From the IMG/VR virus record IMGVR_UViG_2541047873_000001: a stretch of 64,000 bases of DNA; one strand, written 5' to 3'. Both the position numbers and the translations under genes were made by a program. Below, piece by piece: positions 3,759-64,000 of the stretch. This DNA is from a virus (Duplodnaviria > Heunggongvirae > Uroviricota > Caudoviricetes). Positions within the stretch are counted from its first letter, which is position 1, and the number at the start of each line of letters is the position of its first letter. The notes beneath the pieces were generated by a model. The model was not told the DNA's origin. It searched no databases and was given only the letters and a program-made list of their open reading frames with translations.

Positions 3759-5680
3759 TAAAGAAACCTATTCGAATAAATATCCAGTCCACTTTTGCAG
3801 ATACGCTCACTGGATATACGCCTAATCGTTGGGTGGCGGAAGATATCACCGAGGATGATTTACTTATCGAGCCTGCGACGCTGGAAGATATCGAGCTGGC
3901 CTATATGGGCAACGAAATTTTGGTAACTACCAATGAGGCAATGTTCGAAGCTTTAACCACAACAAAATTGCGGTTAGCGCAAACAATGCGAGCATTTGTC
4001 CGGGCGCTTAATCGCGGCCTGAATGGCACTGACATTGCTGCGGGTACGGATGAGGCAGGTGAATATGAAGACGGACGTAATAGTATCGGTGGGGCAATCA
4101 TTGGGCGCGTGCGCCGGGTTGCTAATATCCCTGTTGTAACAGCACAAATACCTCTAACCGATGGACAAACGACAAGCATAATTTTCCATTCTCCAACCGC
4201 AGACGGCACAAGAATTAAAGGGGATGACGAGCTGGTTGCGTTTCAGTTTCTTCTTAACAAAAGAAACGTTACGCATGTTGTTGCGCCAATCGGTGGGCGT
4301 GATGTATCTCTGAGCCAGGTGTGTCAGGCGCTTTCTAACCTCATTGAGCGTAACAGTGCAAAATTCAAAAAAGCAAAGGAGCGCCAGGACAAAATGAAGG
4401 CTGATATTGAGGGGTATCTCAATGAAGCCGACAAGCTGGCAGAAGAACGTTCTGTGCTGATTGAGCAGGTTGAAGACGCACAGCGGGGGCTGGCAGAGAA
4501 ACGCTCAACACTCAATGATATGCAGAATAAATTAGACGCACAAAAAGCCCTTAACGCGGAATTGCAGGCTAAGCGCGATAATTTATTGTCAGCTAAGAGC
4601 CAAGGAACTAAAGAGCGTGCCTTCAATGATCAACTGCGACACATAAAACATAATCTTGCTACAGAAGGCCAAACAACGCTGGATAATGGTGCTGTAGTTA
4701 AGTATGTCACGTCAGGCAGTGATAGCTTTGTCACGATTGAGGCACCAGAAGGCAATTTCAGTATTGATGTCAGTGCTGTTAAAGGTGGGAGTTCAGCGGA
4801 CGCTGCAACCAAATTACTTAAAGCCTATCGTGAACATAATGCTGATCAATACAAAGTGGATGTGTTGCCGGGCCAGCCTGAGCCAACTGATCAGCCGCAG
4901 CCTGAACAGGAGCCACAACCAGCATCACATCCTGATCCCCTGGAGGTTGGTAAATATCGCTATGCGCTACAATCTCGCCCGGCGGGTGTTGGTGCGGTTC
5001 CTGAAGGAAATAAAGCTGTACTTGACCGTCCTGATCAGGCTGATCCGTATTACGAATATGCTCGTCACGGAATCATTACGTATGACCGCAAACTGACAGA
5101 CGAAGAAGTCAGTCAGTACGAATTACGCTATCTGCCTGATGACGATGAACTGAGAGGGATGGCGAACGAGCTGGTTGCGTCCAGCATGGTAAAACATATT
5201 GATGGCTATGTAGATCTGTTTGGAAGTGACCTGAAAACATTCAAGGCGCAAGTTAAAATTCTTTTCCGCAAAGCGTTCCCGAACGTGGCATATCCACTTG
5301 GTGATGGGGAGAACCTTTTCATTATGGACGTGTATAACGCCCTTCAAAATCATTCAAGCGAAGTAAAAACAGATCCTGTAGTTGAGCCAGAATCGCAACC
5401 TGCACCAGCACCAGAACAGGAGCCGGAGCCAGAAGAAGCGGGTGAATCAGCAAGCGAAGCTGACCAGGAAGCAGATAAAGCGCTTGAGTACCTGAAATCC
5501 GTTCCGGAGCAGTTCACATCCCGCGATCTGACGGTCATAAGTGCTGAACTTGATCATGTGCAGGAAGCTGCAAACGCTCTTATCAGTGCTGGTCGATATG
5601 ACGAGAACGAAGCAACTGTAGGTGCAGCCGTTGACTACCTGATCAATATTCTGGCTGAAATTCAGCAGGGAGGTGCTTAA
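3755..5680 (+). CDS. darA: DarA-like internal head / antirestriction protein
   Basis: 641 aa, close to the ~639 aa I recall for P1 DarA; coiled-coil centre and PE/PQ-rich linkers; sits in a lydAB-hdf-darA-ddrA-ddrB-like order. Assignment is positional plus size, not motif-based. Confidence 0.5.
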   Translation: MIKKPIRINIQSTFADTLTGYTPNRWVAEDITEDDLLIEPATLEDIELAYMGNEILVTTNEAMFEALTTTKLRLAQTMRAFVRALNRGLNGTDIAAGTDEAGEYEDGRNSIGGAIIGRVRRVANIPVVTAQIPLTDGQTTSIIFHSPTADGTRIKGDDELVAFQFLLNKRNVTHVVAPIGGRDVSLSQVCQALSNLIERNSAKFKKAKERQDKMKADIEGYLNEADKLAEERSVLIEQVEDAQRGLAEKRSTLNDMQNKLDAQKALNAELQAKRDNLLSAKSQGTKERAFNDQLRHIKHNLATEGQTTLDNGAVVKYVTSGSDSFVTIEAPEGNFSIDVSAVKGGSSADAATKLLKAYREHNADQYKVDVLPGQPEPTDQPQPEQEPQPASHPDPLEVGKYRYALQSRPAGVGAVPEGNKAVLDRPDQADPYYEYARHGIITYDRKLTDEEVSQYELRYLPDDDELRGMANELVASSMVKHIDGYVDLFGSDLKTFKAQVKILFRKAFPNVAYPLGDGENLFIMDVYNALQNHSSEVKTDPVVEPESQPAPAPEQEPEPEEAGESASEADQEADKALEYLKSVPEQFTSRDLTVISAELDHVQEAANALISAGRYDENEATVGAAVDYLINILAEIQQGGA

Positions 5681-6141: not shown

Positions 6142-9100
6142 TTGAACAAGTCAGTTACTTCCGCGCTATCCGAAGCAGCAGACATTAACAGTGTTATTGC
6201 GCTGGTTTCTTCATTAGAGAGGCGAGAAACACGCCAGGGGCGCAGTAGTTACGTAGTCACCAGTAAAGGGGCAGAGGTAAAGACGGCTTTTAAGGTCGTT
6301 GATGCCAGCAGTCTGATCATTTCGAACAACCTTGACGGTACGATTAATCCGGCCTTCCCGGAAGAACTCCAGCCACGTGACCGTACACGGCTATCCAGCA
6401 AACTCCAGGTTAACCGTATTGCCTCCAATTTACGCCCGGCACAATTAACGGATTCCGGCATGAGCAGCCACGGAGCGCCGATAGTTGGTCCGGACAACGT
6501 TGTTGAATCCGGCAACGGAAGGAGCATGGGTATCTGGCGTGCCTATGAGCAAGGGCAGGCGGATGAATATCGCCAGTACCTGATCGATCATGCAAAAGAG
6601 TTTGGTCTGAATCCTGACGACATTTCACAAATGTCTATGCCCGTATTGGTGCGCGAAAGACTCACTGATGTTGATCGTGCGCAGTTCGCCCGCGATTCAA
6701 ACATCAGCGATCTGCAAGAGATGGCTGCAAGTGAAAAAGCGTATGCGGATGCGCAATTTCTCACTGAGAGCGTCATGGCGCTATTTAATCCTTCAGATGA
6801 TGGGAATCTACTGGCGCGGTCCAATGATGCGTTTATTCGTGCGTTTTTGCGCGAAATAGGTGATACGGCGACGGCAGGTTTGCTTACAGCCGATGGGCGT
6901 CCAACGAAACAACTTATCGACCGCATCCAGAATGCAATTTTTGCCAAAGCGTACAAGGATGAAAGGCTTGTTCGGTTGGTGGCGGAAGAGCCAGATCCGG
7001 AAATGCGTAACATCCTTACCGCATTAAATACGGCAGCCAGCGATTTTGCGCAAATGCAGTCGCTTTCAGGTGATGTTCACCATGACACGGTAACCGGACT
7101 GGTAGACGGTATAGAGCAATTGAATGGTCTGGATAAACAGGCTATTGCCGCGCTACAGGAAGCAATTAACCTTGTTCGTGAAGCAAAAGATAACGGTCAG
7201 GCAGTAGAAGAGGTGATCGCACAGCGTGGATTGTTTGGAGATAGCACTCCGGAAGCAGAAGCGCTTGCTCTGTTTATTGTTGCCAACAACCGAAGCGCTA
7301 AGCGAATGGGGGCAGCTTTCAAGAAACTGGCGCAAAAAATTAACGATGAACTTATTCACCAGCAACAAGCGTTAGGCGATATGTTCGGCGGCGGAGATGT
7401 CGATCTGCGTAGCATTTTATCTGCCGTTTCTGATGAAATTGAGGCTGAGTATGGCGAAGGTAAAGGGCTTAATTTCGCCATGTTCGAATCGGTTTCGGGA
7501 GATGTCGAACCATACATTTCAAAGCTAATTGCTGATGCGACCAGCGTGGAGGACTTGATCCGAATCGTGAAGGCGTCAGAAAAAATTAAGGAGTCCGCAA
7601 AAAAAATAAAGCGCAATGTATTTTTGGAACTTGGTTTTTATATTCGCAATGTCACCGTTAATGAGATTAAGGCGTGGGCTAAACGTTATGGATACAGCAA
7701 CGCTGTGTTAACAACGATGTTATTGTCTTATCAACGCAGCAATTTTTATGCTAACGCACTGCGTGACGCGATTGAAAAAGGAGATGAAGCTCCTTCACTC
7801 GCAGATGAAAGAAATATTGATTGTGACATTGAAACGTTTTGCAATATGTCAGAAGAAGGCGTGCCCGCTGAACAATTTATACGTGTTTTACATAATGCAG
7901 CAAAACATATTCCTGATGACTTTAGCATTGATGAATTGCGCAATGGTTGTCTTGTTTGGTTAGGTAACTATTTAAAATCTCCAGCGTCTATTGCAGAGAA
8001 AACAGCTTTAAGATTTAGAAAGGAAATGAATAAAGCTGGAAGCGCAGAAGAGATGGTGCGCATAATCCAAAATACTTTGAAGTTATTCAAAAAGAGCTTG
8101 CATAATATCAACGATATTATGGCGGCTGGTAGGAAAATAACAGCCAGCGTCGGAGTTAGCTCCGAACTAACGGCAGAGGAGATCGCTGATGCGTATATTG
8201 AGACACTTGTCAGGCTTAAGGAGATAGTGGAATTAGCAGAGCATTCCTCATATTACGGAATCAAGGAGCGCGTTGACTTTACTATAGAACAAATCAATAA
8301 AGTTAGGTCAAATAAGGAAAAACTCACTGACTACCTTGCTGAGGTTTTGCACCAGAATGATCATGGGATTGGATATGATCTGAAAAAAATGCTTGTTTTT
8401 AATCTGGACATACCGGAAGACTTGCAAGCAGAATTATATGAAATAGCTTCATTAACACGTGGACAAAAAGCCTATCCTAATGCGCTTGAAAATGTAGTAC
8501 ATAAAAAAGTCAGAGCCGCATTTGACATGATTCTTGAATCGTCAAATGTGTCACATGACCAGTCTAAGGAATGGAGTCGTGGGATTGCTATTTCTGATGA
8601 AGCAGAGCAGTTAAGTGGTCACGATAATGAAACTTTCTCCCGTAAAGCATACAGTATTCGCGAGACAATTGAAAAAGCCTATATTATTTCAGGAGGGACT
8701 TTATCTACATTAAAAAATATTAACCACAAGAACAATGTTCGTGCTTTTGCAAGTCGAAATGGGAATATAACAATTGATGCTAATAGTGATCATGAGCGTG
8801 TATTATGGCATGAAATAGGTCACCATATAGAACATTCAAATCCCCATCTATTGGAGAGGGCCAAAGCCTTCATTAAATCAAAAACTAACGGTAAAGTTTC
8901 TTATCATAATATTGGTAGCCGTGGCAGTGCTGAGTATTTGGTGCGAACCGACCTAAGTCATGGATATATGTCTAAAATTTATATGGAAAATACGGTAAGT
9001 TCTGTCAGCGGCAGATTTATATCAAAGCCACCTGCATTAAGCAATTGCAGGGCGACTGAGATTTTTTCTATGGCCTTGCAGATGTATGCCGATCCTGAGC

Positions 9101-16320: not shown

Positions 16321-19300
16321 TTGAGGGGGCTTCCTTTGGACAAAATAATTGATTCAATTAGCCAGGCCACCAGCATTGGGGCGCTGATTGAAATTGTTAG
16401 TCGGTTGCATAAACCGCGAGCTGTAGTGACCTTTGGCGTTAAGAAAGTCGATGGCGTCAGTATTCAGAAAACACGCCGGACAGCAAACAACGCCGCAGTA
16501 GATCTTCTTAATTCCCTTCCGCCCGGCTTCGATGGAGCGAAATTAACTGACGAACAGCGTCAGATTCTTGCCGGGTATACCGGTGAAGGCGGCCTGACAG
16601 ATGGTGAGGGCAGCCAATACGAATACTATACGCCACAGTTTATGGCAGAAGGTATATGGGATCTCTTCGGCGACTACGGTATTGATAGCGGTCACGTACT
16701 GGAACCGTCAGCAGGCACAGGTATTTTCCAGGAGACAAAACGGCAGGGCATGATAATGACCAGCGCCGAACTGTCTCCGATCTCCGGTCGAATAAACCAG
16801 CTTTTGCACCCGGAAGATGATGTGAATATCGGGGCGTTTGAGGCGCTGGCGGCGAAAGATGCAATGTATGACCACGCAGTTGGTAACGTACCGTTTGGCG
16901 AAGGGCGTTCCGGCGTCGCCGGGCTTGATCCGGCATATGCAAACGAGAAGAACGTTGGCAATTATTTTGTGCTGCGCACGATCGACAAGGTTAAGCCTGG
17001 TGGGCTAATTGTATTGGTGGTGCCGAATGGCATGACCGATGGTACGAAATACAAAAAATTGCGCGATAAAGTCAGCCGTAAAGCGGAATTTTTGGGCGCG
17101 CATCGTATGCCTTCTGGTACGTTCAGCGAATCCGGTACAGATACCGTGGTGGACGTATGGGTATTGCGTAAACACCCGGAAACCTTCCTGGAGATGATCC
17201 CCGACACGGATGATGCAACGCTCAAATCGGCAAACGTCCTTTGGGATACCTTCCTCAAAGGGAAATGGTTTACAACCGAAGGGAAGCGATTTGTTTACGG
17301 CGACATGGAACGCACCAGCTTCCGCAATACCCTGGTGGTGAAAAAGGACGGTCGTGTATCCAATGAGTCGATGAAAACCGCGTTATCACGCCGCTTTGAA
17401 AGCCGTATTAATTGGGATTTGCTCGGAGTAACTACCCAGGCATGGCAGGGCGCAAAAGTAGGGGATAAGCGTCTTGTAGGCGGTATCTGGCATGAGTTTG
17501 ATGGCCTGAAATGGGTTAAGGACACGACAACCAAATCCTCCGCGCTTGATGTAAGTCGATATGGTGTTTCGACGTTTGGCGATCTGCAGATCGCGTTCCA
17601 GTCAACAAACGGGATTCTGGCTTTGTCATGGGACCAGATATCGGCGATCGCGTCCGACTATCCATCGGTTGTCAGTGATGAAGTGGCAGCAATGATTCGC
17701 TTTGCTGGCAAACAGCGAGAAAAAGACAGGGAGCGCGTTATGCGCGGTGCGTTGATAGGGCAGTTGATCAACAAGGCACTTGATTTGCGTAACCTGGGGG
17801 TGAACGTTGATGACAAACTGGCAGATGCATCCCGCCTGGCGGCAGCAGAAGTTGCGAAGTATGGACCACCGCACGCGATTAAGCTGAATGGGCTTGCTGA
17901 AGCTGGCGCTAAAAACTGGATGACGTTCACTGGCAATGTGAAACAGGATGGTTCCACTTCTGACCTTCTGGCAGGGCGACTTGATGTAACGGATGGTGCT
18001 GCCGGTATTGACTTTACACGTCCGGAACAAGTGATAGCACATCTTTTCAGTGATGTAGCCCTTAATCCTATAACGCTGGGCGACTTTCGTGAGGCGTTTG
18101 CTGGTGAACTGCCAGAGGACGACGACGCGGCCCTTGAATACCTGGCGAAATTTGATGATATCGCTATTGATGGGTATGGCTGCCTGCTGCCGATGGACCG
18201 CGCCACCAGCGGCGATATTGTAACCAAAACAGCATTGCTGGTGGGCTGGCGTGATGCATCAACAGGTGAGCAGAAAGCGAACTTTGAGCGTCAGTTGGCG
18301 AAAATCGAAGAGAAACGCATTTTCACGCCACTAAATAAAGTCACCGTTAATCTGAACGCCCGCTGGCTGGATCGCCGCTTGATAAAAGAGTTCCTGGCAG
18401 AGCAGGGCTATGACGAGTTTAAGTACACTGAACCTGATCTGAAGGTCGTCGATGGCATTCTGGTATCTCCGGACGATTACGAAGGTAAGGACGGGGTATT
18501 TACCGGCTATCAGCTACGAACCGTAAACGGCAAAAACGGGAATGAGTTCAAGAAGGCCAACAATAAAGACGGCTTCCTGAACCAGTTAGAAAACTACCTG
18601 AACGGTGTTAAACCGCGTGGGCAGAACGCTAACGAGTACCTGGATAAAATTGCTCAACTGGAAGTTAGCTTTAACGACTGGTTACGCACCCACCCGCAGG
18701 CGGATCAGATAGCCCGTGACTATAACGACGCATTCAATGGCTTCATTCCGTTCACGCACTCTAACGCACCGCTTGGCCTGGAAGGGATTAGTGGAAAGCG
18801 CATTCCTCTGACTTATCAGAATGAAGAAGTTCGTCGCTTATCAGAAGATGGGCGCGGCATCATGGGATTTGGCACCGGGCTGGGTAAAACCACGACCGCG
18901 CTTGCGCTTGAGGCGTATAACTTCGAAACAGGTCGTACTAAACGCACGTGTATTGTTGTTCCGAAGGCGGTTTATCAGAACTGGTATCACGAGGCACAGA
19001 GCTTCTACAGTGCTGATGCCTTCGCCAATATGATGTTTATCGGTCTGGATGAAGTTCGTGATGACAGCGGAAATATTCTGACCGCTCCGGTGCTTGATGA
19101 AAATGGCGAACCCCGCCTCGACAGTAACGGGCAGCCTCTTACCAGAAATGTTGTGAAAGAGTCCGCCAGCGCCGTTATCGTTCAGCGCATGAACATGATC
19201 CCGTCGTCAAATTGGCGAACGGTCATCATGACAAAAGAACAATTCGCGTCTATCCCGCTACGAGAAAAAACCATCGAGGAGAACTCACAGCAAGCTGTCT

Positions 19301-22300
19301 TTAATGCTGTGGAAATGGGGCGTCTTGACCTGGCGTCTGGTAAACACCGTGATGCGCAGAAGAAGAACAAGATTAAGGATCAGGCCGCGAATACCGGTAC
19401 AACGAAGAAGCAGAATATCCCGTACTTTGAGGATATGAACTTCGATAGCGTGATAGCCGACGAGGGGCATAACTACCGCAACTCCTTTAATGCCGGGCGT
19501 GAAGCGGGACAACTGGCATATTTGCCTAACCCGGCAGTATCCAAGATGGCCCGCGACATGGCTGTAAAAGCTGCGTACATGATGAAACGCAACAACGGGC
19601 GTGGTGTAGTCATGCTGACGGCAACACCGCTGGTGAACAGTCCGATTGATGCCTTCAACATGCTGTCTACTGTCATTCCGCAGGAAGAGTGGATGCGCAT
19701 GGGCATCATTACGCCTGATGATTTCGTTCGTGTGTTTGGTAAAACAGCCACAGTTCAGGTCCAGAAAATTTCCGGGGAAGTGGAAGAGAAGCAGGGGCTG
19801 GTTGGCTTCCAGAACCTTGATGGCCTGCGTGGCATTTTCCATCGCTGGACTACTCTGAAGACTGCTGCGGACGTCGGGGCGACGGTTAAAATCCCTGATA
19901 TTGTCGAGAATACCTTGCAGATCCCGATGACAGGGGAGCAGGAGGCTGCTTATGAAGAGCTTCGTAAGCGTGCACAGGAGTTAAGTAGTAAAGATGCGCT
20001 GACGGTTGATGAAAACGGGCATATCACAAACGAAAAACCGGATGATTTCATCTTCTCCATCATCCGCGACATGGATAAGGTTGCTATAGATCCGGATCTG
20101 TATGCCAGTGCGATTACATTCCAGTTCCCCGTTGAGCTTGCAGACAAGGTAAAAGCTATTGCTGATGCCCTGCCAAAAGTAGCTGGCGGTAAAGTGGCAG
20201 ATGATGCAGACGAGGCCGAAGAAGACGGCGCTGGTGGGCTGGTTAGTACGCGCACCAGTAAGGTAGTGAAGACCACCTTTAGTGAACATCCGGCGCATGT
20301 TGAAATACGTGCCAGCATTGAACTGGAAGCTGAAATACTGAAGGCCATTGCTGCCGCCGGGATTGATATGCAGCAGGTATCACACCCAATCCCGCCGAAG
20401 TATGCCGCGCTGATCGAAAACCTTCGTGAAGGTCTGAAGAACGGTAAACAAATTGTCTTCATTGATGAAAAAGCCCAGCACCAGAAGCTGCGCCGTATTA
20501 TCGCCAGTGCACTGCAAATGCCGGAGCAGGAGATAGGCATTATCAATGCGACGACCGTTAGCCAGGCTGGCGGCATCAAGCTGAAGAAGGTGAATAAGCC
20601 GACTGAACCTACTCCGAATAAAAACGGTGAATACAAAGAAGGGGCATGGGAAACCTACTACAGCAAACTTGCCCAATATGAGGATTATCTCTCAGCTAAA
20701 AATGATGCTGGCCTTGAGGGTATGGAAGGCATTGCCGCCGACTATAACGAAGGGCGCACGCGCATAATTATCTGTAACAAGAAGGCTGAAGTAGGTATTA
20801 ACCTGCATATCGGGACAACCGATATCCACCACCTGACACTACCCTGGACACCAGCCAGTATCGACCAACGAAATGGGCGCGGTGCGCGCGTAGGTTCACC
20901 GCAAGAGAAGGTCAATGTTCACTACTATTGTGGCAAAGGCACATTCGACGACTTCCGTCTGGATACGCTGAAACGTAAGAAAGACTGGATCAAGATGGTG
21001 ATGACCTCCGACATGTCAGAGATCGCCAATGGTGATGCGGATGATGCTGATGAACGCGCCATTATGCTGGCGGCAAACCCGGAAGAACGCCGCGCAATCA
21101 TGGCTCGCCAGGCGCAAGAGCGTGAAGAACGTCTGAAACTGAAAGCACAGCGCGAGGCCAACAATGCTCTCGATATCTACCTGAAAGCGGCAAACGCCGC
21201 TGGAAAAGATATCGGCATGATGGAGACAGAACTGAAAAGCGCGATGGAACAGATAGAGTATTACCAGCGAAATCTTGACGACCTGATAAAAGCGGGTACG
21301 AACAGGAATGGGCAAAAATTCGCGCTTGAGCAGTTGAGTAGCTACAGAAAACGTGCGCGGGTGCTGCGGTTTGCGATCACCAGGGCAAAAGACGCGGATA
21401 CCATAATGAAACGCTCTCGTGGTGATGTGGAGCGCGCTATTAAGTCTGGTGTGCTGGATATCAGTATCGATGTTATTCAGAACCCACAGGAATATATGCG
21501 CACTGACAAGAATATCCTGTTGCATAAAGGTAGTTATTACCGTGCAGTCATTGATGATCGCGAAACAACAGCGATTGTCCGGGTGGAAAAAATTGACGGT
21601 GAAAAAGCACAATACCTCTGCCGTATCGCCTGGCTGGATAGAGCAAGTCGTTACGCTCGATCACCGGGGTCAATCGTTACATTGCCGTTTGACTCTGTGA
21701 TTGAAGCGGTAACTTTTGAAGAGGGGGTAGCTGAATCGCGCGCAACGGCTGCGCGTGGTGTTCAGTGCCACCAGCTATCAACAATACTTACTCGCGATCA
21801 GTTCTATGATGCTATTCGCAATGGGGTAATGAATGTTATTGCTGGTAAACCTGGTAATGCATGGGGCGGTGGGTCAGCTATTAAATACTGGGCATATCGT
21901 ACAGATGATGGTCAGATCGCGCTGTCATCGGCCTATGATGGCGTGATAGGCCAAAAAATCGGGCGAGCATCGGATATAGCACCTGAACGATGGATATATC
22001 CAGATGGCAACGATGAGGCGCTGAAGCGTGAAGTGGCAAAAATACAAGCCAGTGATAACCCGCTGAATATCGTGGACGGCGAGGGATTCCTCCAGGCATT
22101 GTATGGGTATGATTACATCCAGGGAATGCAGGCATGGGGCGCACAGGCAACGATGGATGATGTTGTCCAGGAGTTCGAAAACTGGATGGCTGGGCGTGGT
22201 CTGTCAGGTCGTTCGCTTAATAAAGTCACTTCTGAAGATATTCTTAGCTTGTTCCGCAAACCGTCCGGAGAAGGTCTGGAATCATTCTGGAGGACCGTGC

Positions 22301-23172
22301 TGGCATACCGTTTATTCAAGGGCAGAATGAAAGCCTTTAGCAATATCGATGATATTGAACGGATGTTTAATCAGGTCAAGATCGCCAAAATTAAGACGAA
22401 GATCGAAAAAACACGTTCTGCGCTGGTGGCCTGGCGCGATGCATTGTTTGAGCAATATAAATCACTCAGTGATGCAGATGGATGGGCGGCATTGGAACAG
22501 TTGGCGAATAATGGGGTAGATGGAGCGAAACTCGCCATAGTCCAGGCTGATAACCCCCTGGAATCACCGGCAGCACAGTGGATTAAGGTGGGGGCTGTCA
22601 TCAATGCATTTGATGAAAAACACATTAGTAAGGACGATTTTGCTGATGCTGTTTCTGTTAATCGCCTGGTAGAAATGGCTACCCGCCGCGCCCGTGAGTT
22701 GAAAGACGGTGACTATGTGAATGAGTTGCCGGATGCGCTCAAATCAGCAACGTGGCAAGACTATGTATCGCTGAAAAACGGCGGGGCAACCGAATCAGAG
22801 ATCGCGGAAAGGCTTGAACAGGCTGAAAGCAAAAGAGAAGAGCAGGCGGCAGTGGCTGAAGCCAGAGCTGATGAAGCGGCGAATGATGACTATATCATTG
22901 TGGTTAATGATAAGCCGATTCGCGCTAAGGCGCGTGTTCGCGGGCGCTGGTGGAGTGTCAGCGAGGACGTCGGTGCGGTTTATCTCATTGCCGACCAACC
23001 TGGTTCCTCGACAATACGGAACGCCAAAGACGCGATTAAGAAGATTGGCGGGCGTTTCTGGAATTTTGAAGCAAACCCGGTTGCTGATGTGAACTTTGAC
23101 CGTCCTGCATGGATGGTATCTACGCGTTACTCGGTAGATGAACTGCGTAAAATAATCGCCGATGCGGCCTAA
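16321..23172 (+). CDS. darB: DarB-type antirestriction protein (N6-adenine methyltransferase plus DExH helicase)
   Basis: 2283 aa; SAM motif EPSAGTGIF and NPPF-like GNVPFG; Walker A GFGTGLGKTTTA and DEGHNYRN box. Start is uncertain (TTG at 16321 or 16336). Confidence 0.8.
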   Translation: MRGLPLDKIIDSISQATSIGALIEIVSRLHKPRAVVTFGVKKVDGVSIQKTRRTANNAAVDLLNSLPPGFDGAKLTDEQRQILAGYTGEGGLTDGEGSQYEYYTPQFMAEGIWDLFGDYGIDSGHVLEPSAGTGIFQETKRQGMIMTSAELSPISGRINQLLHPEDDVNIGAFEALAAKDAMYDHAVGNVPFGEGRSGVAGLDPAYANEKNVGNYFVLRTIDKVKPGGLIVLVVPNGMTDGTKYKKLRDKVSRKAEFLGAHRMPSGTFSESGTDTVVDVWVLRKHPETFLEMIPDTDDATLKSANVLWDTFLKGKWFTTEGKRFVYGDMERTSFRNTLVVKKDGRVSNESMKTALSRRFESRINWDLLGVTTQAWQGAKVGDKRLVGGIWHEFDGLKWVKDTTTKSSALDVSRYGVSTFGDLQIAFQSTNGILALSWDQISAIASDYPSVVSDEVAAMIRFAGKQREKDRERVMRGALIGQLINKALDLRNLGVNVDDKLADASRLAAAEVAKYGPPHAIKLNGLAEAGAKNWMTFTGNVKQDGSTSDLLAGRLDVTDGAAGIDFTRPEQVIAHLFSDVALNPITLGDFREAFAGELPEDDDAALEYLAKFDDIAIDGYGCLLPMDRATSGDIVTKTALLVGWRDASTGEQKANFERQLAKIEEKRIFTPLNKVTVNLNARWLDRRLIKEFLAEQGYDEFKYTEPDLKVVDGILVSPDDYEGKDGVFTGYQLRTVNGKNGNEFKKANNKDGFLNQLENYLNGVKPRGQNANEYLDKIAQLEVSFNDWLRTHPQADQIARDYNDAFNGFIPFTHSNAPLGLEGISGKRIPLTYQNEEVRRLSEDGRGIMGFGTGLGKTTTALALEAYNFETGRTKRTCIVVPKAVYQNWYHEAQSFYSADAFANMMFIGLDEVRDDSGNILTAPVLDENGEPRLDSNGQPLTRNVVKESASAVIVQRMNMIPSSNWRTVIMTKEQFASIPLREKTIEENSQQAVFNAVEMGRLDLASGKHRDAQKKNKIKDQAANTGTTKKQNIPYFEDMNFDSVIADEGHNYRNSFNAGREAGQLAYLPNPAVSKMARDMAVKAAYMMKRNNGRGVVMLTATPLVNSPIDAFNMLSTVIPQEEWMRMGIITPDDFVRVFGKTATVQVQKISGEVEEKQGLVGFQNLDGLRGIFHRWTTLKTAADVGATVKIPDIVENTLQIPMTGEQEAAYEELRKRAQELSSKDALTVDENGHITNEKPDDFIFSIIRDMDKVAIDPDLYASAITFQFPVELADKVKAIADALPKVAGGKVADDADEAEEDGAGGLVSTRTSKVVKTTFSEHPAHVEIRASIELEAEILKAIAAAGIDMQQVSHPIPPKYAALIENLREGLKNGKQIVFIDEKAQHQKLRRIIASALQMPEQEIGIINATTVSQAGGIKLKKVNKPTEPTPNKNGEYKEGAWETYYSKLAQYEDYLSAKNDAGLEGMEGIAADYNEGRTRIIICNKKAEVGINLHIGTTDIHHLTLPWTPASIDQRNGRGARVGSPQEKVNVHYYCGKGTFDDFRLDTLKRKKDWIKMVMTSDMSEIANGDADDADERAIMLAANPEERRAIMARQAQEREERLKLKAQREANNALDIYLKAANAAGKDIGMMETELKSAMEQIEYYQRNLDDLIKAGTNRNGQKFALEQLSSYRKRARVLRFAITRAKDADTIMKRSRGDVERAIKSGVLDISIDVIQNPQEYMRTDKNILLHKGSYYRAVIDDRETTAIVRVEKIDGEKAQYLCRIAWLDRASRYARSPGSIVTLPFDSVIEAVTFEEGVAESRATAARGVQCHQLSTILTRDQFYDAIRNGVMNVIAGKPGNAWGGGSAIKYWAYRTDDGQIALSSAYDGVIGQKIGRASDIAPERWIYPDGNDEALKREVAKIQASDNPLNIVDGEGFLQALYGYDYIQGMQAWGAQATMDDVVQEFENWMAGRGLSGRSLNKVTSEDILSLFRKPSGEGLESFWRTVLAYRLFKGRMKAFSNIDDIERMFNQVKIAKIKTKIEKTRSALVAWRDALFEQYKSLSDADGWAALEQLANNGVDGAKLAIVQADNPLESPAAQWIKVGAVINAFDEKHISKDDFADAVSVNRLVEMATRRARELKDGDYVNELPDALKSATWQDYVSLKNGGATESEIAERLEQAESKREEQAAVAEARADEAANDDYIIVVNDKPIRAKARVRGRWWSVSEDVGAVYLIADQPGSSTIRNAKDAIKKIGGRFWNFEANPVADVNFDRPAWMVSTRYSVDELRKIIADAA

Positions 23173-24754: not shown

Positions 24755-25062
24755 GCAGAAAACACCACGTAAATCTGACGTTTGCTGATGACGCCGGAAG
24801 AACCAGAAGCATAACCATGAAAGTTGCTTCCAGGAAAGTAACCGCGCCACTTATACGAGAGGCCGTAAGTGAACTTGATATGAGTGAGAATGCAGCTCTG
24901 TTATCGGTAAGCTGGCTGGGGAAAATGACGGATCAGGAATACTCGGATGGTATACCCCACGGTGAGCGGCAGATAGTAAAGCGCGCGTTTAGAATTTCAG
25001 AGGTAGTTGTCGTACTGATAGCTTTGATTTATATGGCATACATGCTACTCCAACACGTCTAA
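24736..25062 (+). CDS. Hypothetical protein with C-terminal TM anchor
   Basis: 108 aa; C-terminal VVVLIALIYMAYMLL hydrophobic helix. Confidence 0.35.
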   Translation: MGVCSLSRKHHVNLTFADDAGRTRSITMKVASRKVTAPLIREAVSELDMSENAALLSVSWLGKMTDQEYSDGIPHGERQIVKRAFRISEVVVVLIALIYMAYMLLQHV

Positions 25063-25073
25063 ACGGTCATAAA

Positions 25074-25097
25074 CCCGCCAGTTGGCGGGTTTTTTTG
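25074..25097 (+). terminator. Rho-independent terminator
   Basis: cccgccagttggcggg hairpin plus a T8 run. Confidence 0.7.
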
Positions 25098-25135
25098 TTG
25101 CCTGAGTCTTTTTATTGAAATTGCATACTAATAAA

Positions 25136-25153
25136 ATATGTTAGAAAACTAAT
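25136..25153. promoter_or_regulatory. Operator-like site (ATGTTAGAAAACT)
   Basis: Motif copy ~20 bp upstream of the 402-aa gene. Confidence 0.45.
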
Positions 25154-25172
25154 TTCAAGAAAGGGAACAAAC

Positions 25173-26381
25173 ATGAGTCAGCAAGTAGAATCATCAAGCC
25201 TGGAGATCATCTCAACCGCAATTGAAACGCTGCGGACACAAATCGCGCTTATACAGAAACGAAATCCGGGCGATGACCTGTCAAAGCGACTGCATGAGAG
25301 CGTCATTGCCACTACAGATAACCTGGTGGCGGAAATCAACCAGCTCCTTGATGATGGGGCAGTTGATTACAATAAGCTGGTGGATCAGTTTGAGGAATAT
25401 CAGCAAGCCGTTAATGATGGCTTGATCCGTTTTTCTCAAGTCACTGGTGTATCAGCGACAGTTGAAAGCCTGGGGGATGCAGTTAATCAATTTGCCGCGA
25501 ATATGCGTAATGAGATCGGCAATCTGGAGGCGCGTCTTGAGCAGGCAAATACACTGCGCAAATCTGCTGAAGTCGATTTGAGTCGTTACAAAAAAGACTA
25601 TCCGCCAAGCCTGACAAAACGACTGGATGTTGCGGAGAAAGATAACCGCACGCTGAAAAGAGAGCGTCGGGAACTAAAAGAGCGTTTAACCAAGCTAAAT
25701 CAGCAATGCGTTGAGTATCAAGGCGAACTCGTCACACTGCGTAAAAAGTTAGCAGCGGCGCAGAGCATTATTGAAACATTGAAACGAGAGTGCTCAGAGC
25801 TTGGTCATGATCTGAATCGCGCCTGTGGCATGGGGCAAAGGCCAGAGACATTCCCGCTAATGTATGACGGAAGAGAAGCTATTGCCTATATCCATGAGTT
25901 TCCGCATGGTCTGGTCGCGGAGACTGGGCAACGTGGCGAAGCGTTGCTGACGGCAAATTACCATCAGCAAATCAGAACCAGCCGCCTGCTGACGATGGAT
26001 GTGATCCCGTCAGTATGGGGAACGCCGCTTTACTACCGAATTCCTGGCTTCGAAACTGACTGGAATACCGACATAGACGAATGTCTGGCAGATAAAATTA
26101 TGGCGTACCTTGAAACGGATTTTCCACGCTTGCATCGCCGGATTATGGACTCTAAGGATGCACCGATCGACGAATTGAAAATGCGTCCAGAGACGTTGGA
26201 GGCAATCAAGCAGACTGAGTTTGATACAGTGTTCAGTGTGGCCTGCATTCCAAGCAGCTTTCATGAAAGCATTCCGTTCATGCAGGGCGATCGCCGTCAG
26301 GAAATAATTGATGCTTGCCGGGTATGGGCGAACGAGTGGGATAAGAAGAACGGTGGAGTTGAAAATCTTTACGGGAAATAA
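25173..26381 (+). CDS. Coiled-coil protein of unknown function, bracketed by operator sites
   Basis: 402 aa; long coiled coil (residues ~100-210) and a globular C-terminus; good RBS. Confidence 0.5.
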   Translation: MSQQVESSSLEIISTAIETLRTQIALIQKRNPGDDLSKRLHESVIATTDNLVAEINQLLDDGAVDYNKLVDQFEEYQQAVNDGLIRFSQVTGVSATVESLGDAVNQFAANMRNEIGNLEARLEQANTLRKSAEVDLSRYKKDYPPSLTKRLDVAEKDNRTLKRERRELKERLTKLNQQCVEYQGELVTLRKKLAAAQSIIETLKRECSELGHDLNRACGMGQRPETFPLMYDGREAIAYIHEFPHGLVAETGQRGEALLTANYHQQIRTSRLLTMDVIPSVWGTPLYYRIPGFETDWNTDIDECLADKIMAYLETDFPRLHRRIMDSKDAPIDELKMRPETLEAIKQTEFDTVFSVACIPSSFHESIPFMQGDRRQEIIDACRVWANEWDKKNGGVENLYGK

Positions 26382-33569: not shown

Positions 33570-34607
33570 TTACCAGAGTTTTGCCGCGTACATCGTTTGT
33601 GTGAATGTGTACCCATAGCGTTCTTCAACGCTTTTACCGTATTTTTTCCTGGCTTCAGTAAGGCGGATGCCTGTCAGGTCATCGCCGGAGGCAATCATAA
33701 CTTCCAGTAGTTCCAGGTCCATTTTATCCAGCCTTGCCATTGCATCTTTAGCCTCTTGAATTTTCCGGCTAACGATCTGGTGTATGGCTGGATCGGCTTC
33801 GGCCAGCATTTTATCTGATTTGTTTTTTAAACTCTGATTGCGGATATCAATGTTTCTCAGGATATATGACTTCACGACATAGCTTGGCTGCTGCTTTTCC
33901 AGATCACGAACCCGATAAAGGTCAAATTCGCCGAGAAGTCCGCACGGAAGCGGTTTAATGCCAGTGTAAATGGTAAGGGTGCGGCGCTCACCAACGTTGT
34001 TAACAACGGGAATCTCTGTGTTTGCTTTTTTTGCAAAGATCAGCGCACCGTGCGTACCCACTCTGAAGCGTGAAAGTCCATTGTTGCCCTCGATATTGGT
34101 GGTAATCACCACATCGGTATAACCTTCTTTTCTTGCGCGGTATACCTCGCCCTCACGTTCAGCGGCGAAGAATCTGCGTTCTTCTTCAAGCGCACCGACA
34201 ACCTGTGAAAATATCCTGTTTTTCATGCTTTTCTTTATAGTTTTATCGTATTTTTTCAACAGGTCTTCGCGCGTAAATGTTCTCGTTGTGGTTGCGCTTT
34301 GCATAACGATATGCGTACTCTGATTAGTATCCTCAACAATGAATGGGATCGGTAAATAAACCGACTCAACAATGTTTGAGGCTTTGTCATCATCCTTGCG
34401 ACACAGATCAACAAAGGCTTTCCATTCGGCTACGCATTTTTCAGCTTCTTCTAATACAGCCGGATCATGTGTTAATGCAACATGGCGAAATTCCTCGCCA
34501 ACATAACTGGTATCATGGAAAACAGAGTTTGCGACCACCAGCTCTTTCCACCGTTCAGCGGTTTGCAGGAACCGTTTGTACTCATTCTCGATCGACTTCT
34601 TACTCAT
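33570..34607 (-). CDS. Candidate C1-type immunity repressor (positional inference only)
   Basis: 345 aa (ATG at 34607, MSKKSIENEY; the ORF-track N-terminal extension crosses operator sites). Divergent from the recombinase gene, with operator copies in its 5' region; sits between pacB and the lox-like site where c1 lies in P1. Confidence 0.35.
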   Translation of the reverse strand: MSKKSIENEYKRFLQTAERWKELVVANSVFHDTSYVGEEFRHVALTHDPAVLEEAEKCVAEWKAFVDLCRKDDDKASNIVESVYLPIPFIVEDTNQSTHIVMQSATTTRTFTREDLLKKYDKTIKKSMKNRIFSQVVGALEEERRFFAAEREGEVYRARKEGYTDVVITTNIEGNNGLSRFRVGTHGALIFAKKANTEIPVVNNVGERRTLTIYTGIKPLPCGLLGEFDLYRVRDLEKQQPSYVVKSYILRNIDIRNQSLKNKSDKMLAEADPAIHQIVSRKIQEAKDAMARLDKMDLELLEVMIASGDDLTGIRLTEARKKYGKSVEERYGYTFTQTMYAAKLW

Positions 34608-34637: not shown

Positions 34638-34710
34638 AAAGTCCTGTGACAAATTTATGCCGAATAACAAGGTGAGTAAAGGATAAAACCGCTTTTTTTT
34701 GATTGTTCCT

Positions 34711-34722
34711 ATTAGAAAATGT
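34711..34722. promoter_or_regulatory. Weak operator-like half-site (ATTAGAAAATGT)
   Basis: One-mismatch variant of the motif in the repressor/recombinase intergenic region. Confidence 0.3.
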
Positions 34723-45856: not shown

Positions 45857-45888
45857 ATGTTAGAAAATTAAAATCAATATTCTAACAC
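45857..45888. promoter_or_regulatory. Bipartite operator
   Basis: atgttagaaaattaaaatcaatattctaaca inverted half-sites, intergenic. Confidence 0.55.
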
Positions 45889-50904: not shown

Positions 50905-50938
50905 GTGTTAGAAAATCAATTTTGATTTTCTAACACAT
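50905..50938. promoter_or_regulatory. 34-bp palindromic operator between divergent operons
   Basis: tgtgttagaaaatcaa-tt-ttgattttctaacaca: perfect 16-bp inverted repeat. Confidence 0.65.
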
Positions 50939-62640: not shown

Positions 62641-62654
62641 CAAAATGCAAAACT

Positions 62655-62688
62655 GTATTAGATAATTGAGTTTTATTTTCTAACACAG
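62655..62688. promoter_or_regulatory. Bipartite operator upstream of rdgC
   Basis: gtattagataattgagttttattttctaacacag, with a degenerate left half-site. Confidence 0.5.
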
Positions 62689-62690
62689 TT

Positions 62691-63605
62691 TTGCTAAACA
62701 TGAGATTAGTCGCCTTTAAAAACATATACGTCTATCGCCTTGCCCGCGAAATAAAACTGGACTCAACCACCGTTAGTGATGCCTTAAGCCAATTCACATT
62801 CACTCCATGCGCATCACAAGAAATGGCAAAAGTCGGATGGGTGCCGGTTCTGGCTGACAACCTGATCCATGAATACCACGGTTTTCTACTTCTCCAGCAA
62901 CAGCGAGAAATTAAGCTCCTGCCCTCTCATGTCATTAAGGAGGAAGTGCAGAAAAAAGTGGAAAAGCTCGAAAATGAGCAATCTCGTAAGCTGAAGAAGT
63001 CGGAAAAAAACACCCTGAAGGATGAAGTTCTCCACTCTTTGTTGCCTCGTGCATTCACTCGCAAATCATTGTCGCGAATCCTTATTGATCGCGACAACTA
63101 TCTGGTCTTCGTAGAAGCTTCCAGCGCCAGAAAAGCTGAAGAAATGCTGGCGCTCTTACGTAAATCACTTGGCAGCCTGCCAGTGATTCCATTCACGCCG
63201 ATAGAACCGCTCGAAATGACTATGACCGAATGGTTCAAGTCAACATTTCCTCAAGGCTTTAAAGCAGGCGAAGAAGCCATATTGAAATCTCTGTTCGATG
63301 ACGGCGGCGCAGTTCGTTGCAAGAAAGTAGACCTACAGTCAGAGGAAATAATGACTCATATTGAAGCCGGAAAAGTTGCAACAACAGTTGCAATCAACTG
63401 GCAGGACCGCGCGACCTTCAGGTTAAACGATGACATGAGCATCAAAGCACTGACGTTTTGCGATGATCTCTATGACCAGAACGATGACATCGACCGTGAA
63501 GATGTTGCCCAGCGATTTGATGCTGACTTCATTCTGTTCACAAGCGAATTATCCGCGATGTTTAGCTCGCTGGTGGAGGCCATTGGCGGTGAAGCAGAGC
63601 ATTAA
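62691..63605 (+). CDS. rdgC: Recombination-associated protein RdgC
   Basis: Colinear with E. coli RdgC from memory (FTPC.SQ.MAK.GWVP, LKDEVLHSLLPRAF, ALLRKSLGSLPV, EDIDREDVAQRFDADFIL). Confidence 0.9.
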   Translation: MLNMRLVAFKNIYVYRLAREIKLDSTTVSDALSQFTFTPCASQEMAKVGWVPVLADNLIHEYHGFLLLQQQREIKLLPSHVIKEEVQKKVEKLENEQSRKLKKSEKNTLKDEVLHSLLPRAFTRKSLSRILIDRDNYLVFVEASSARKAEEMLALLRKSLGSLPVIPFTPIEPLEMTMTEWFKSTFPQGFKAGEEAILKSLFDDGGAVRCKKVDLQSEEIMTHIEAGKVATTVAINWQDRATFRLNDDMSIKALTFCDDLYDQNDDIDREDVAQRFDADFILFTSELSAMFSSLVEAIGGEAEH

Positions 63606-63621
63606 TAACCGACCGCTGGCG

Positions 63622-64000
63622 GTGAGTCTTTGTGATTATACAGGGAATATGGTTTCCCCCTGGCTGGAACACGGCATTGATGCAGTCATTGTCGATCCGC
63701 AACACCAGGAGTCCGGCAGCCAATTGATGGAGTCAGGTGCTGTACTCACACGTATCAGCGCAATTATTGACAGTGATGAGGTCTACAATTTCCTTCGGAA
63801 AAATTTGCACAGAGTTGTATTTTTAGCCGGTTTCCCTCCGTGTACTGACCTGGCTGTATCTGGCGCACGCTGGTTCGCAGATAAAGCGAAAAAAGATCCG
63901 GTTTTCCAGTTCAAAGCAATGCAGGTTGTCTGGCAGTGTTACGACATTGCAAAGATGATTGGTTGCCCGTACATGATTGAAAACCCGGTCAGCCAAATAT
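63622..64000 (+). CDS. Partial ORF (3'-truncated by window edge), possible Cys-dependent pyrimidine-modifying or C5-methyltransferase-like enzyme
   Basis: VVFLAGFPPCTDLAVSG resembles motif IV (GFPCQ.FS) of C5-cytosine methyltransferases, but no clear motif I; GTG 63622 or ATG 63649 start. Confidence 0.3.
   Translation, partial: MSLCDYTGNMVSPWLEHGIDAVIVDPQHQESGSQLMESGAVLTRISAIIDSDEVYNFLRKNLHRVVFLAGFPPCTDLAVSGARWFADKAKKDPVFQFKAMQVVWQCYDIAKMIGCPYMIENPVSQI

Follow-up and report, generated by a model that had tools for sequence, protein, structure and literature searches.

The closest described counterpart of the locus considered here is an operon of phage P1. According to the P1 GenBank record, the C1-controlled operator Odmt (formerly Op68) overlaps the promoter Pdmt and is followed by the genes uhr, hrdC and dmt, the last of which encodes Dmt, annotated as a 'bifunctional DNA methyltransferase' with a canonical PF00145 domain in its N-terminal half and a Dam-type domain (PF02086) in its C-terminal half. 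Here, we analyze the last part (positions 62,647-64,000) of a 64,000-nucleotide (nt) stretch of DNA from a tailed phage of the class Caudoviricetes (IMG/VR record IMGVR_UViG_2541047873_000001), called the window in the following. It contains an rdgC gene behind a repeated, operator-like motif and the first part of a gene for a predicted compact C5-cytosine DNA methyltransferase. We propose that this region is the beginning of a C1-repressed early "DNA-handling" operon, the counterpart of P1 Odmt-uhr-hrdC-dmt, and we assign a probability of roughly three in four to this reading of the operon together with the identity of the methyltransferase.

A second point of reference is phage K42, a KarlJaspers strain, in which the mutations that allow escape from the retron Ec86 lie in a 'Dcm-like' gene of 711 bp (10.1101/2023.08.16.553469, preprint). 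Residues C82, E128, K175 and K176 of its product were chosen from the superposition of an AlphaFold model and DNMT3A, and the wild-type enzyme raised the level of 5-methylcytosine (5mC) on the multicopy single-stranded DNA (msDNA) of the retron, as measured by liquid chromatography coupled to mass spectrometry (LC-MS), whereas the C82A/E128A/K175A/K176A variant did not (10.1101/2023.08.16.553469). The K42 dcm gene triggers retron Ec86 and is toxic in combination with it, and the quadruple mutant loses this effect (10.1101/2023.08.16.553469).

Gene order and reading frames of the locus

Over its last 1.6 kb, the window is 99.8% identical to the E. coli plasmid NZ_CP104667.1, 93-99% identical to several sibling plasmids and 76% identical to Escherichia phage D6. 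D6 is a P1-related plasmid prophage, and the window represents a D6-like prophage of the same kind from E. coli. The features discussed below are the following:

62647..62694, no strand assigned: predicted bivalent C1-type operator, made of two inverted copies of the repeated motif of the window
62700..63605, plus strand: rdgC, orthologue of P1 hrdC, 301 amino acids (aa), assigned by Pfam, NCBIfam and identity to P1 HrdC
63575..63579, plus strand: GGAGG ribosome-binding site within the end of rdgC, 9 nt before the GTG start, read directly from the sequence
63589..64000, plus strand: 5′ 137 codons of a predicted Dcm-like C5-cytosine DNA methyltransferase of 226 aa (PHROG 757 family), cut at the window edge
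63625-63645, plus strand: SLCDYTG, element at the position of motif I
63694-63696, plus strand: Asp36, the motif II Asp
63823-63864, plus strand: LAGFPPCTDLAVSG, motif IV region
63832-63843, plus strand: FPPC, with the Cys85 codon at 63841-63843
63979-63987, plus strand: ENP, equivalent of motif VI

The first gene is rdgC, as a preliminary description of this DNA, made from the letters alone, had stated. Its product matches Pfam PF04381 over profile positions 3-298 of 298 (E = 1.2e-100; 337 bits, cutoff 25) and the NCBIfam equivalog NF001462 above its cutoff (375.6 bits, cutoff 330), and the same 906-bp coding sequence is called by the Prokaryotic Genome Annotation Pipeline (PGAP) in near-identical plasmids. 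The protein shares 51% identity over 300 aa with P1 HrdC, and it is through this homology only that we predict it to be a recombination-associated DNA-binding protein that modulates RecA. The preliminary description did not recall an RdgC in P1; HrdC is that homologue, and it is encoded within the C1-controlled Odmt/Op68-Pdmt-uhr-hrdC-dmt operon. Since P1 possesses the same operator-controlled hrdC-dmt operon, the arrangement in the window is the expected one and no novelty.

The reading frame that contains LAGFPPCTDLAVSG runs uninterrupted from a point upstream of the rdgC stop codon through the end of the window and comprises 137 codons when counted from a GTG at 63589, a start that overlaps the end of rdgC, including its stop codon, by 17 nt. 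In the sibling plasmids, PGAP places the start at the ATG corresponding to 63649 and annotates a 'hypothetical protein' of 206 aa (compared over 63589-63651 of the window and 6190-6252 of the sibling record L002). This shorter version loses the first strand and the conserved SLCDYTG loop, both of which are included in the homologues. GTG 63589 is the likely start, and we prefer it because the GGAGG 9 nt upstream, the 17-nt overlap, the homologues and the annotation of D6, which uses the same GTG, all agree. The orthologue in D6 is orf64, annotated as a 'putative DNA-cytosine methylase'; it is 84% identical, lies between rdgC and dam and has the same overlapping GTG start.

The full 226-aa product was taken from the region 24900-25580 of the 99.8%-identical plasmid NZ_CP104667, and it is identical to the window protein in the portion that the window covers. 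Close relatives have a Dam gene behind the 226-aa gene, the two overlapping by 8 nt, and Dam lies just past the window edge. One database protein (P0001, 305 aa, from an ENA contig) has the C-terminal portion of RdgC joined in frame to the full-length PPC protein; this probably reflects a frameshift or an assembly error at the overlap of 17 nt and not a real fusion.

A compact family of predicted C5-cytosine methyltransferases

The preliminary description had noted that the PPC of the second gene resembles motif IV of C5-methyltransferases and had proposed a search of the full open reading frame (ORF) with hidden Markov models (HMMs). The 226-aa protein matched PHROG 757, 'DNA methyltransferase', at 3.1e-78. 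The resemblance is borne out by the predicted fold, by the invariance of Cys85 and Glu131 and by a 38%-identical homologue that is reported to form 5mC. In BLASTP, this homologue, bas06_0055 of KarlJaspers, aligns with residues 8-220 of the window protein (38% identity, E = 2e-42). The bas06_0055 gene is 711 bp long and encodes C82 within FPPC, E128 within ENP and K175/K176 within KKT, as does a Warwickvirus copy; C82, E128, K175 and K176 correspond to C85, E131, K164 and K165 of the window protein. Because the KarlJaspers protein is 38% identical to the window protein over its whole length, the PPC family has a characterised member.

This family is very large. At E <= 1e-5, 7,679 proteins were found in a collection clustered at 90% identity, and there are 2,555 clusters at 50% identity; by tblastn, matches occur in 1,571 phage records, which include T1-like, rV5-like, RB49-like and Jersey-like phages, Ackermannviridae, and phages of Campylobacter, Flavobacterium and cyanobacteria. 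A precomputed Pfam domain was present in none of the 120 members listed out of the 7,679. The compact PPC domain also occurs within larger proteins, such as P0241 (563 aa), P0339 (548 aa) and the BFVD entries A0A6J5SE15 (1397 aa) and A0A6J5NPY6 (1126 aa), the first of these BFVD entries being annotated as 'Helicase/UvrB N-terminal'.

C5-methyltransferase chemistry is defined by the motif IV Cys, which acts as the nucleophile, and the motif VI Glu. Both residues are among those that are invariant in 98 diverse representatives of the family, namely D36, C85, E131, P133, K164, T166 and W169, and N132 is present in 93 of them. With the Cys kept in 98 of 98 sequences, the PPC of FPPC is not a chance tripeptide. 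The conserved blocks read S-L-[FCY]-D-x-[TS]-G-x-M-x-x-P-W, F-P-P-C-T-D-L-A-V-S-G-A-R-W-F and I-E-N-P-V-S in the first part of the protein, followed by Y-T-K-K-T-C-L-W-T-G-x-G-F-x-M-P and R-S-x-T-P-x-G-F-A-x-A-V. Neither SLCDYTG nor ENP had been mentioned in the preliminary description, which saw no obvious motif I. That view holds insofar as the canonical loop is degenerate: the clade of the window reads C-D-Y-T-G, so that only the last Gly of FxGxG is kept. It does not hold for the family, in which the first block, with the consensus [FCY]-D-x-[TS]-G, occupies the motif I position and reads F-D-G-S-G, a canonical FxGxG, in the members from Drexlerviridae.

Structure prediction points in the same direction. 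An AlphaFold2 model of an orthologue reached a mean predicted local distance difference test score (pLDDT) of 87.6 and a predicted template modelling score (pTM) of 0.86, and has the fold of class I S-adenosylmethionine (SAM)-dependent methyltransferases, with C5 DNA methyltransferases on top of the fold search. Foldseek hits in the PDB were weak (E ~1e-3) and were headed by DNMT3B and DNMT3A; among the viral models of BFVD, the nearest neighbours after the family itself were canonical viral C5 methylases. A thymidylate-synthase-like reading was rejected, as the model is a Rossmann-type alpha/beta protein whose neighbours are SAM-dependent methyltransferases and short-chain dehydrogenases/reductases, with no ThyA fold among them. 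Nor does anything point to some other new chemistry of pyrimidine modification: the predicted fold is that of a Rossmann-type SAM methyltransferase, and the family has a characterised 5mC-forming member. A missing catalytic fold or a match to an unrelated family, the outcomes that the preliminary description had named as speaking against a Cys-dependent enzyme, were not what the modelled full-length orthologue returned, C5 DNA methyltransferases being on top of its fold search. From sequence conservation and the model, we regard the 226-aa protein as probably a compact Dcm-like C5-cytosine DNA methyltransferase and a member of the recently characterised phage enzyme family.

The genomic position of the gene is in line with this assignment. 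In sibling plasmids of E. marmotae, the RdgC protein is identical to that of the window, and the DNA similarity breaks off at the rdgC stop codon. One of them (L005, NZ_CP056699.1, 4190-6478) carries a P1-type fusion of PF00145 and PF02086 with 762 aa in the slot otherwise taken by the compact PPC gene and dam. This cassette swap argues that the compact PPC protein is functionally equivalent to a C5 methyltransferase, and the exchange of the compact enzyme for a PF00145-Dam fusion on near-identical backbones makes a clean natural case in which non-orthologous replacement has taken place at one fixed locus.

Several points weigh against this assignment. The 226-aa protein has no methyltransferase match in Pfam at E <= 1 and none in NCBIfam, and sequence searches of the PDB with phmmer and hmmsearch, both with the single sequence and with the profile, returned nothing significant. 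Alignment of the family profile to a canonical C5 alignment with hhalign was not significant either (probability 1.9%). The canonical FxGxG loop for SAM is degenerate in the clade of the window (CDYTG), Thr replaces the Gln that follows the catalytic Cys, and a sizeable target-recognition domain is absent, with ~35 residues between KKTCLW and RSxTP in a protein of 226 aa overall. The AlphaFold2 model was built on an 86%-identical orthologue, not on the exact window protein, from an alignment of 58 sequences. The 5mC activity is known just for the 38%-identical homologue, as described in a preprint and measured in a dcm+ background, and the CCWGG specificity given there was carried over from E. 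coli Dcm and not mapped (10.1101/2023.08.16.553469).

Some further comparisons help to place these results. The PF00145 HMM does not match the 226-aa protein at E <= 1, let alone at its gathering score, yet PF00145 is the only Pfam family matched by more than one family member, although below threshold (4 of the 98 representatives, best E 0.0039). In the non-significant hhalign alignment, FPPC is set against TPCQ and ENP against ENV, a register that we use as a supporting detail only. Against P1 Dmt alone, hhalign of the family profile was not significant and BLASTP of the 226-aa protein detected no similarity. The best sequence matches in the PDB, to ornithine decarboxylase, KtrA and SdaI (E >= 0.17), were treated as noise.

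Because the target-recognition domain is lacking and the SAM loop is degenerate in the D6 clade, the compact PPC family might have no Dcm-type CCWGG target and might instead comprise cytosine-C5 modifiers of low specificity, or specific for structures such as single-stranded DNA or hairpins, a reading that we consider rather unlikely; the published activity is a bulk 5mC signal on the msDNA of the retron. A further reading would make the 226-aa protein a catalytically dead or non-DNA-methylating relic, that is, a DNA-binding or regulatory protein or a DNMT2-type RNA m5C enzyme that has kept the fold. The missing PF00145 match, the absent target-recognition domain and the NCBI annotation as 'hypothetical protein' would all fit such a relic. 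It is made improbable by the strict invariance of the catalytic Cys and Glu and of the motif II Asp in the 98 representatives of a family of about 2,500 clusters at 50% identity, as purifying selection on catalysis would yield, by the dependence of the homologue's phenotype on the catalytic residues and by the position of the gene, which occupies the DNA-methylation slot beside Dam.

The repeated operator-like motif upstream of rdgC

That rdgC stands behind a site of the repressor-operator type was already part of the preliminary description and is confirmed by the recurrence of the motif. Of its core, TRTTAGAWAAT, the window has 12 copies where 0.20 would be expected, a number reached in 0 of 100 shuffles, and 11 of the 12 copies fall between ORFs (ORFs of at least 80 aa considered). 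A single copy had been described before rdgC; the operator is present there, but with two copies that form a bivalent site. The arms of this 48-bp site (62647-62666 and 62675-62694) are a 20-nt inverted repeat, 90% complementary and separated by an 8-nt spacer, and the cores lie at 62656-62666 (+) and 62675-62685 (-). The same head-to-head N8 geometry, with the pattern TGTTAGAAAAT-N8-ATTTTCTAACA, is found at three bivalent sites in total, 45858-45887, 50906-50935 and 62656-62685, the partner copies of the first two starting at 45858/45877 and 50906/50925. In comparison with phage D6, both operator cores upstream of rdgC are conserved islands in diverged intergenic surroundings.

The operator consensus of P1, ATTGCTCTAATAAATTT, was not found in the window when as many as 3 mismatches were allowed, and because this exact consensus is absent, we defined the operator motif from the repeats of the window itself. 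When read on the other strand, the resulting consensus, AATTTTCTAACACWTTT, agrees with the P1 C1 operator ATTGCTCTAATAAATTT at ~11-12 of 17 positions in a by-eye alignment on CTAA, a figure to which no statistic is attached; going by this alignment, we take the window consensus to be a diverged relative of the P1 C1 operator. A tblastn search with P1 C1 gave a weak but full-length match to the window (21% identity over 241 aa, E = 1e-5, 34589-33897 on the minus strand). This C1 homologue, at ~33897-34589 (-), is probably the immunity repressor gene of the prophage as judged from the alignment, and a copy of the operator motif (34710-34720) is located just upstream of it.

By analogy to P1, where Odmt/Op68 precedes uhr-hrdC-dmt, we infer that a C1-type repressor would bind at 62647-62694 and repress the downstream operon. 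The operator probably overlaps the promoter of this operon, for which GATAAT at 62661-62666 is the best candidate -10 element, as part of a TAGCAA-17-GATAAT arrangement that matches at 8 of 12 positions and was read from the sequence by eye. A scan with the sigma-70 consensus speaks against this placement, with no qualifying promoter reported at the operator, and it counts likewise against the operon model that both the binding of the repressor and the position of the promoter are deduced.

The palindrome might also act primarily as an RNA or DNA hairpin, either as a terminator or stabiliser where the upstream baseplate operon ends or in translational control, by masking the start of rdgC, whose ATG lacks a Shine-Dalgarno sequence and lies 6 nt past the palindrome. 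In favour of this, its RNA fold has an energy of -18.7 kcal/mol (z = -3.45), and the outer stem differs between the window and D6 but is complementary in each (GCAAAAC.../...GTTTTGC compared with CCATTT.../...AAATGG), a complementarity of the outer positions that the bivalent site at 50906/50925, also checked, does not show. However, the stem is not trailed by a U-tract, and the palindrome was not reported in a terminator scan. The conserved part coincides exactly with the motif of which the window has 12 copies, in intergenic positions, the N8 bivalent geometry is repeated at two further loci, and the homologous operon of P1 is under the control of a C1 operator. A primary function as a hairpin is improbable on these grounds, and the roles of operator and hairpin are in any case not mutually exclusive.

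The outer 7-9 nt of the operator arms vary between the window (62647-62694) and D6 (L001, about 4015-4062) with pairing kept in each. This covariation of the arms suggests concerted arm evolution or selection for a hairpin directly upstream of the rdgC ATG, so that the predicted operator could have an additional hairpin role beside a start codon without Shine-Dalgarno sequence. Elsewhere in the window, a mechanical ORF list contains a very long ORF of 2,283 aa (16321-23172, plus strand).

Proposed function and relation to known systems

We propose the following scenario for the operator-controlled operon. A C1-type repressor would keep the operon off in the lysogen by occupying the bivalent operator at 62647-62694, a site that takes in the best -10 candidate (GATAAT, 62661-62666) as well as the initial ~20 nt of the transcript. 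Upon induction, RdgC as a DNA-binding RecA modulator, the compact 226-aa C5 methyltransferase and a Dam-type N6-adenine methyltransferase would be produced; the GGAGG and the overlap of 17 nt would couple translation of the C5 methyltransferase to that of rdgC. In the predicted reaction, Cys85 of FPPC would attack C6 of a flipped-out cytosine and Glu131 of ENP would protonate N3, while the methyl group would come from SAM, bound by Asp36 and by the degenerate loop at motif I. As a rival reading, the protein could have kept the fold of C5 methyltransferases and their Cys/Glu pair and yet transfer a group other than methyl or rely on another cofactor, for example a carboxymethyl group from carboxy-SAM (Cx-SAM) as in the phage enzyme CmoX; this appears very improbable to us.

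Methylation by the compact C5 enzyme would place 5mC on replicating phage DNA ahead of packaging, and the progeny DNA would be packaged with both 5mC and N6-methyladenine (6mA), which presumably weakens restriction in the host infected next. With the enzyme kept silent in the lysogen, its reported toxicity and the triggering of retron-type sensors would be avoided as well. It follows as a prediction that D6-like prophages methylate cytosine only after induction and could then trigger defences of the retron-Eco1 type. For annotation, the homology to the Dcm of K42 and KarlJaspers gives a name to a very large family of phages and prophages for which neither Pfam nor NCBIfam has a model. The operon architecture and the enzyme family are both known, and the current understanding is not overturned.

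In comparison with P1, the locus resembles the Odmt operon in its predicted C1-type operator control and in the succession of an RdgC homologue and of methyltransferase functions of the cytosine-C5 and the Dam type. P1 has the additional gene uhr, and its C5 module, a canonical PF00145 domain, forms a single protein of 754 aa together with Dam, whereas the C5 module of the window is a separate protein from a family that is unrelated at the sequence level. The operators differ as well: Odmt of P1 is monovalent and the operator before rdgC in the window is bivalent, and where the bivalent operators of P1 overlap (Oban ab and Oc1 ab, 28 bp each), those of the window have an N8 spacer. Compared with D6, the window protein and orf64 show sequence divergence only.

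The canonical C5 methyltransferases of PF00145, such as M.HhaI, E. coli Dcm and the catalytic domain of DNMT3A/B, give no significant sequence or profile match to the window protein. It differs from them by an extra Pro and a Thr in place of Gln in motif IV, by the degenerate motif I, by KKT in place of QxRxR and by the lack of a large target-recognition domain; at 226 aa, it is ~100 aa shorter than M.HhaI (327 aa). The characterised homologue is the Dcm of KarlJaspers and K42 (Drexlerviridae), the trigger of retron Ec86/Eco1, with which the window protein has in common the compact size of ~230 aa and the motif set of FPPC, ENP, Y-x-KKTCLW and RS-x-TP-x-GFA-x-AV. The window protein has CDYTG at motif I where KarlJaspers Dcm has FDGSG, and it lacks an insertion of ~14 aa before KKT. 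Finally, the KarlJaspers/K42 gene belongs to a lytic T1-like phage, whereas the gene in the window is part of a temperate plasmid prophage, where it is coupled to rdgC and dam behind a predicted C1-type operator.

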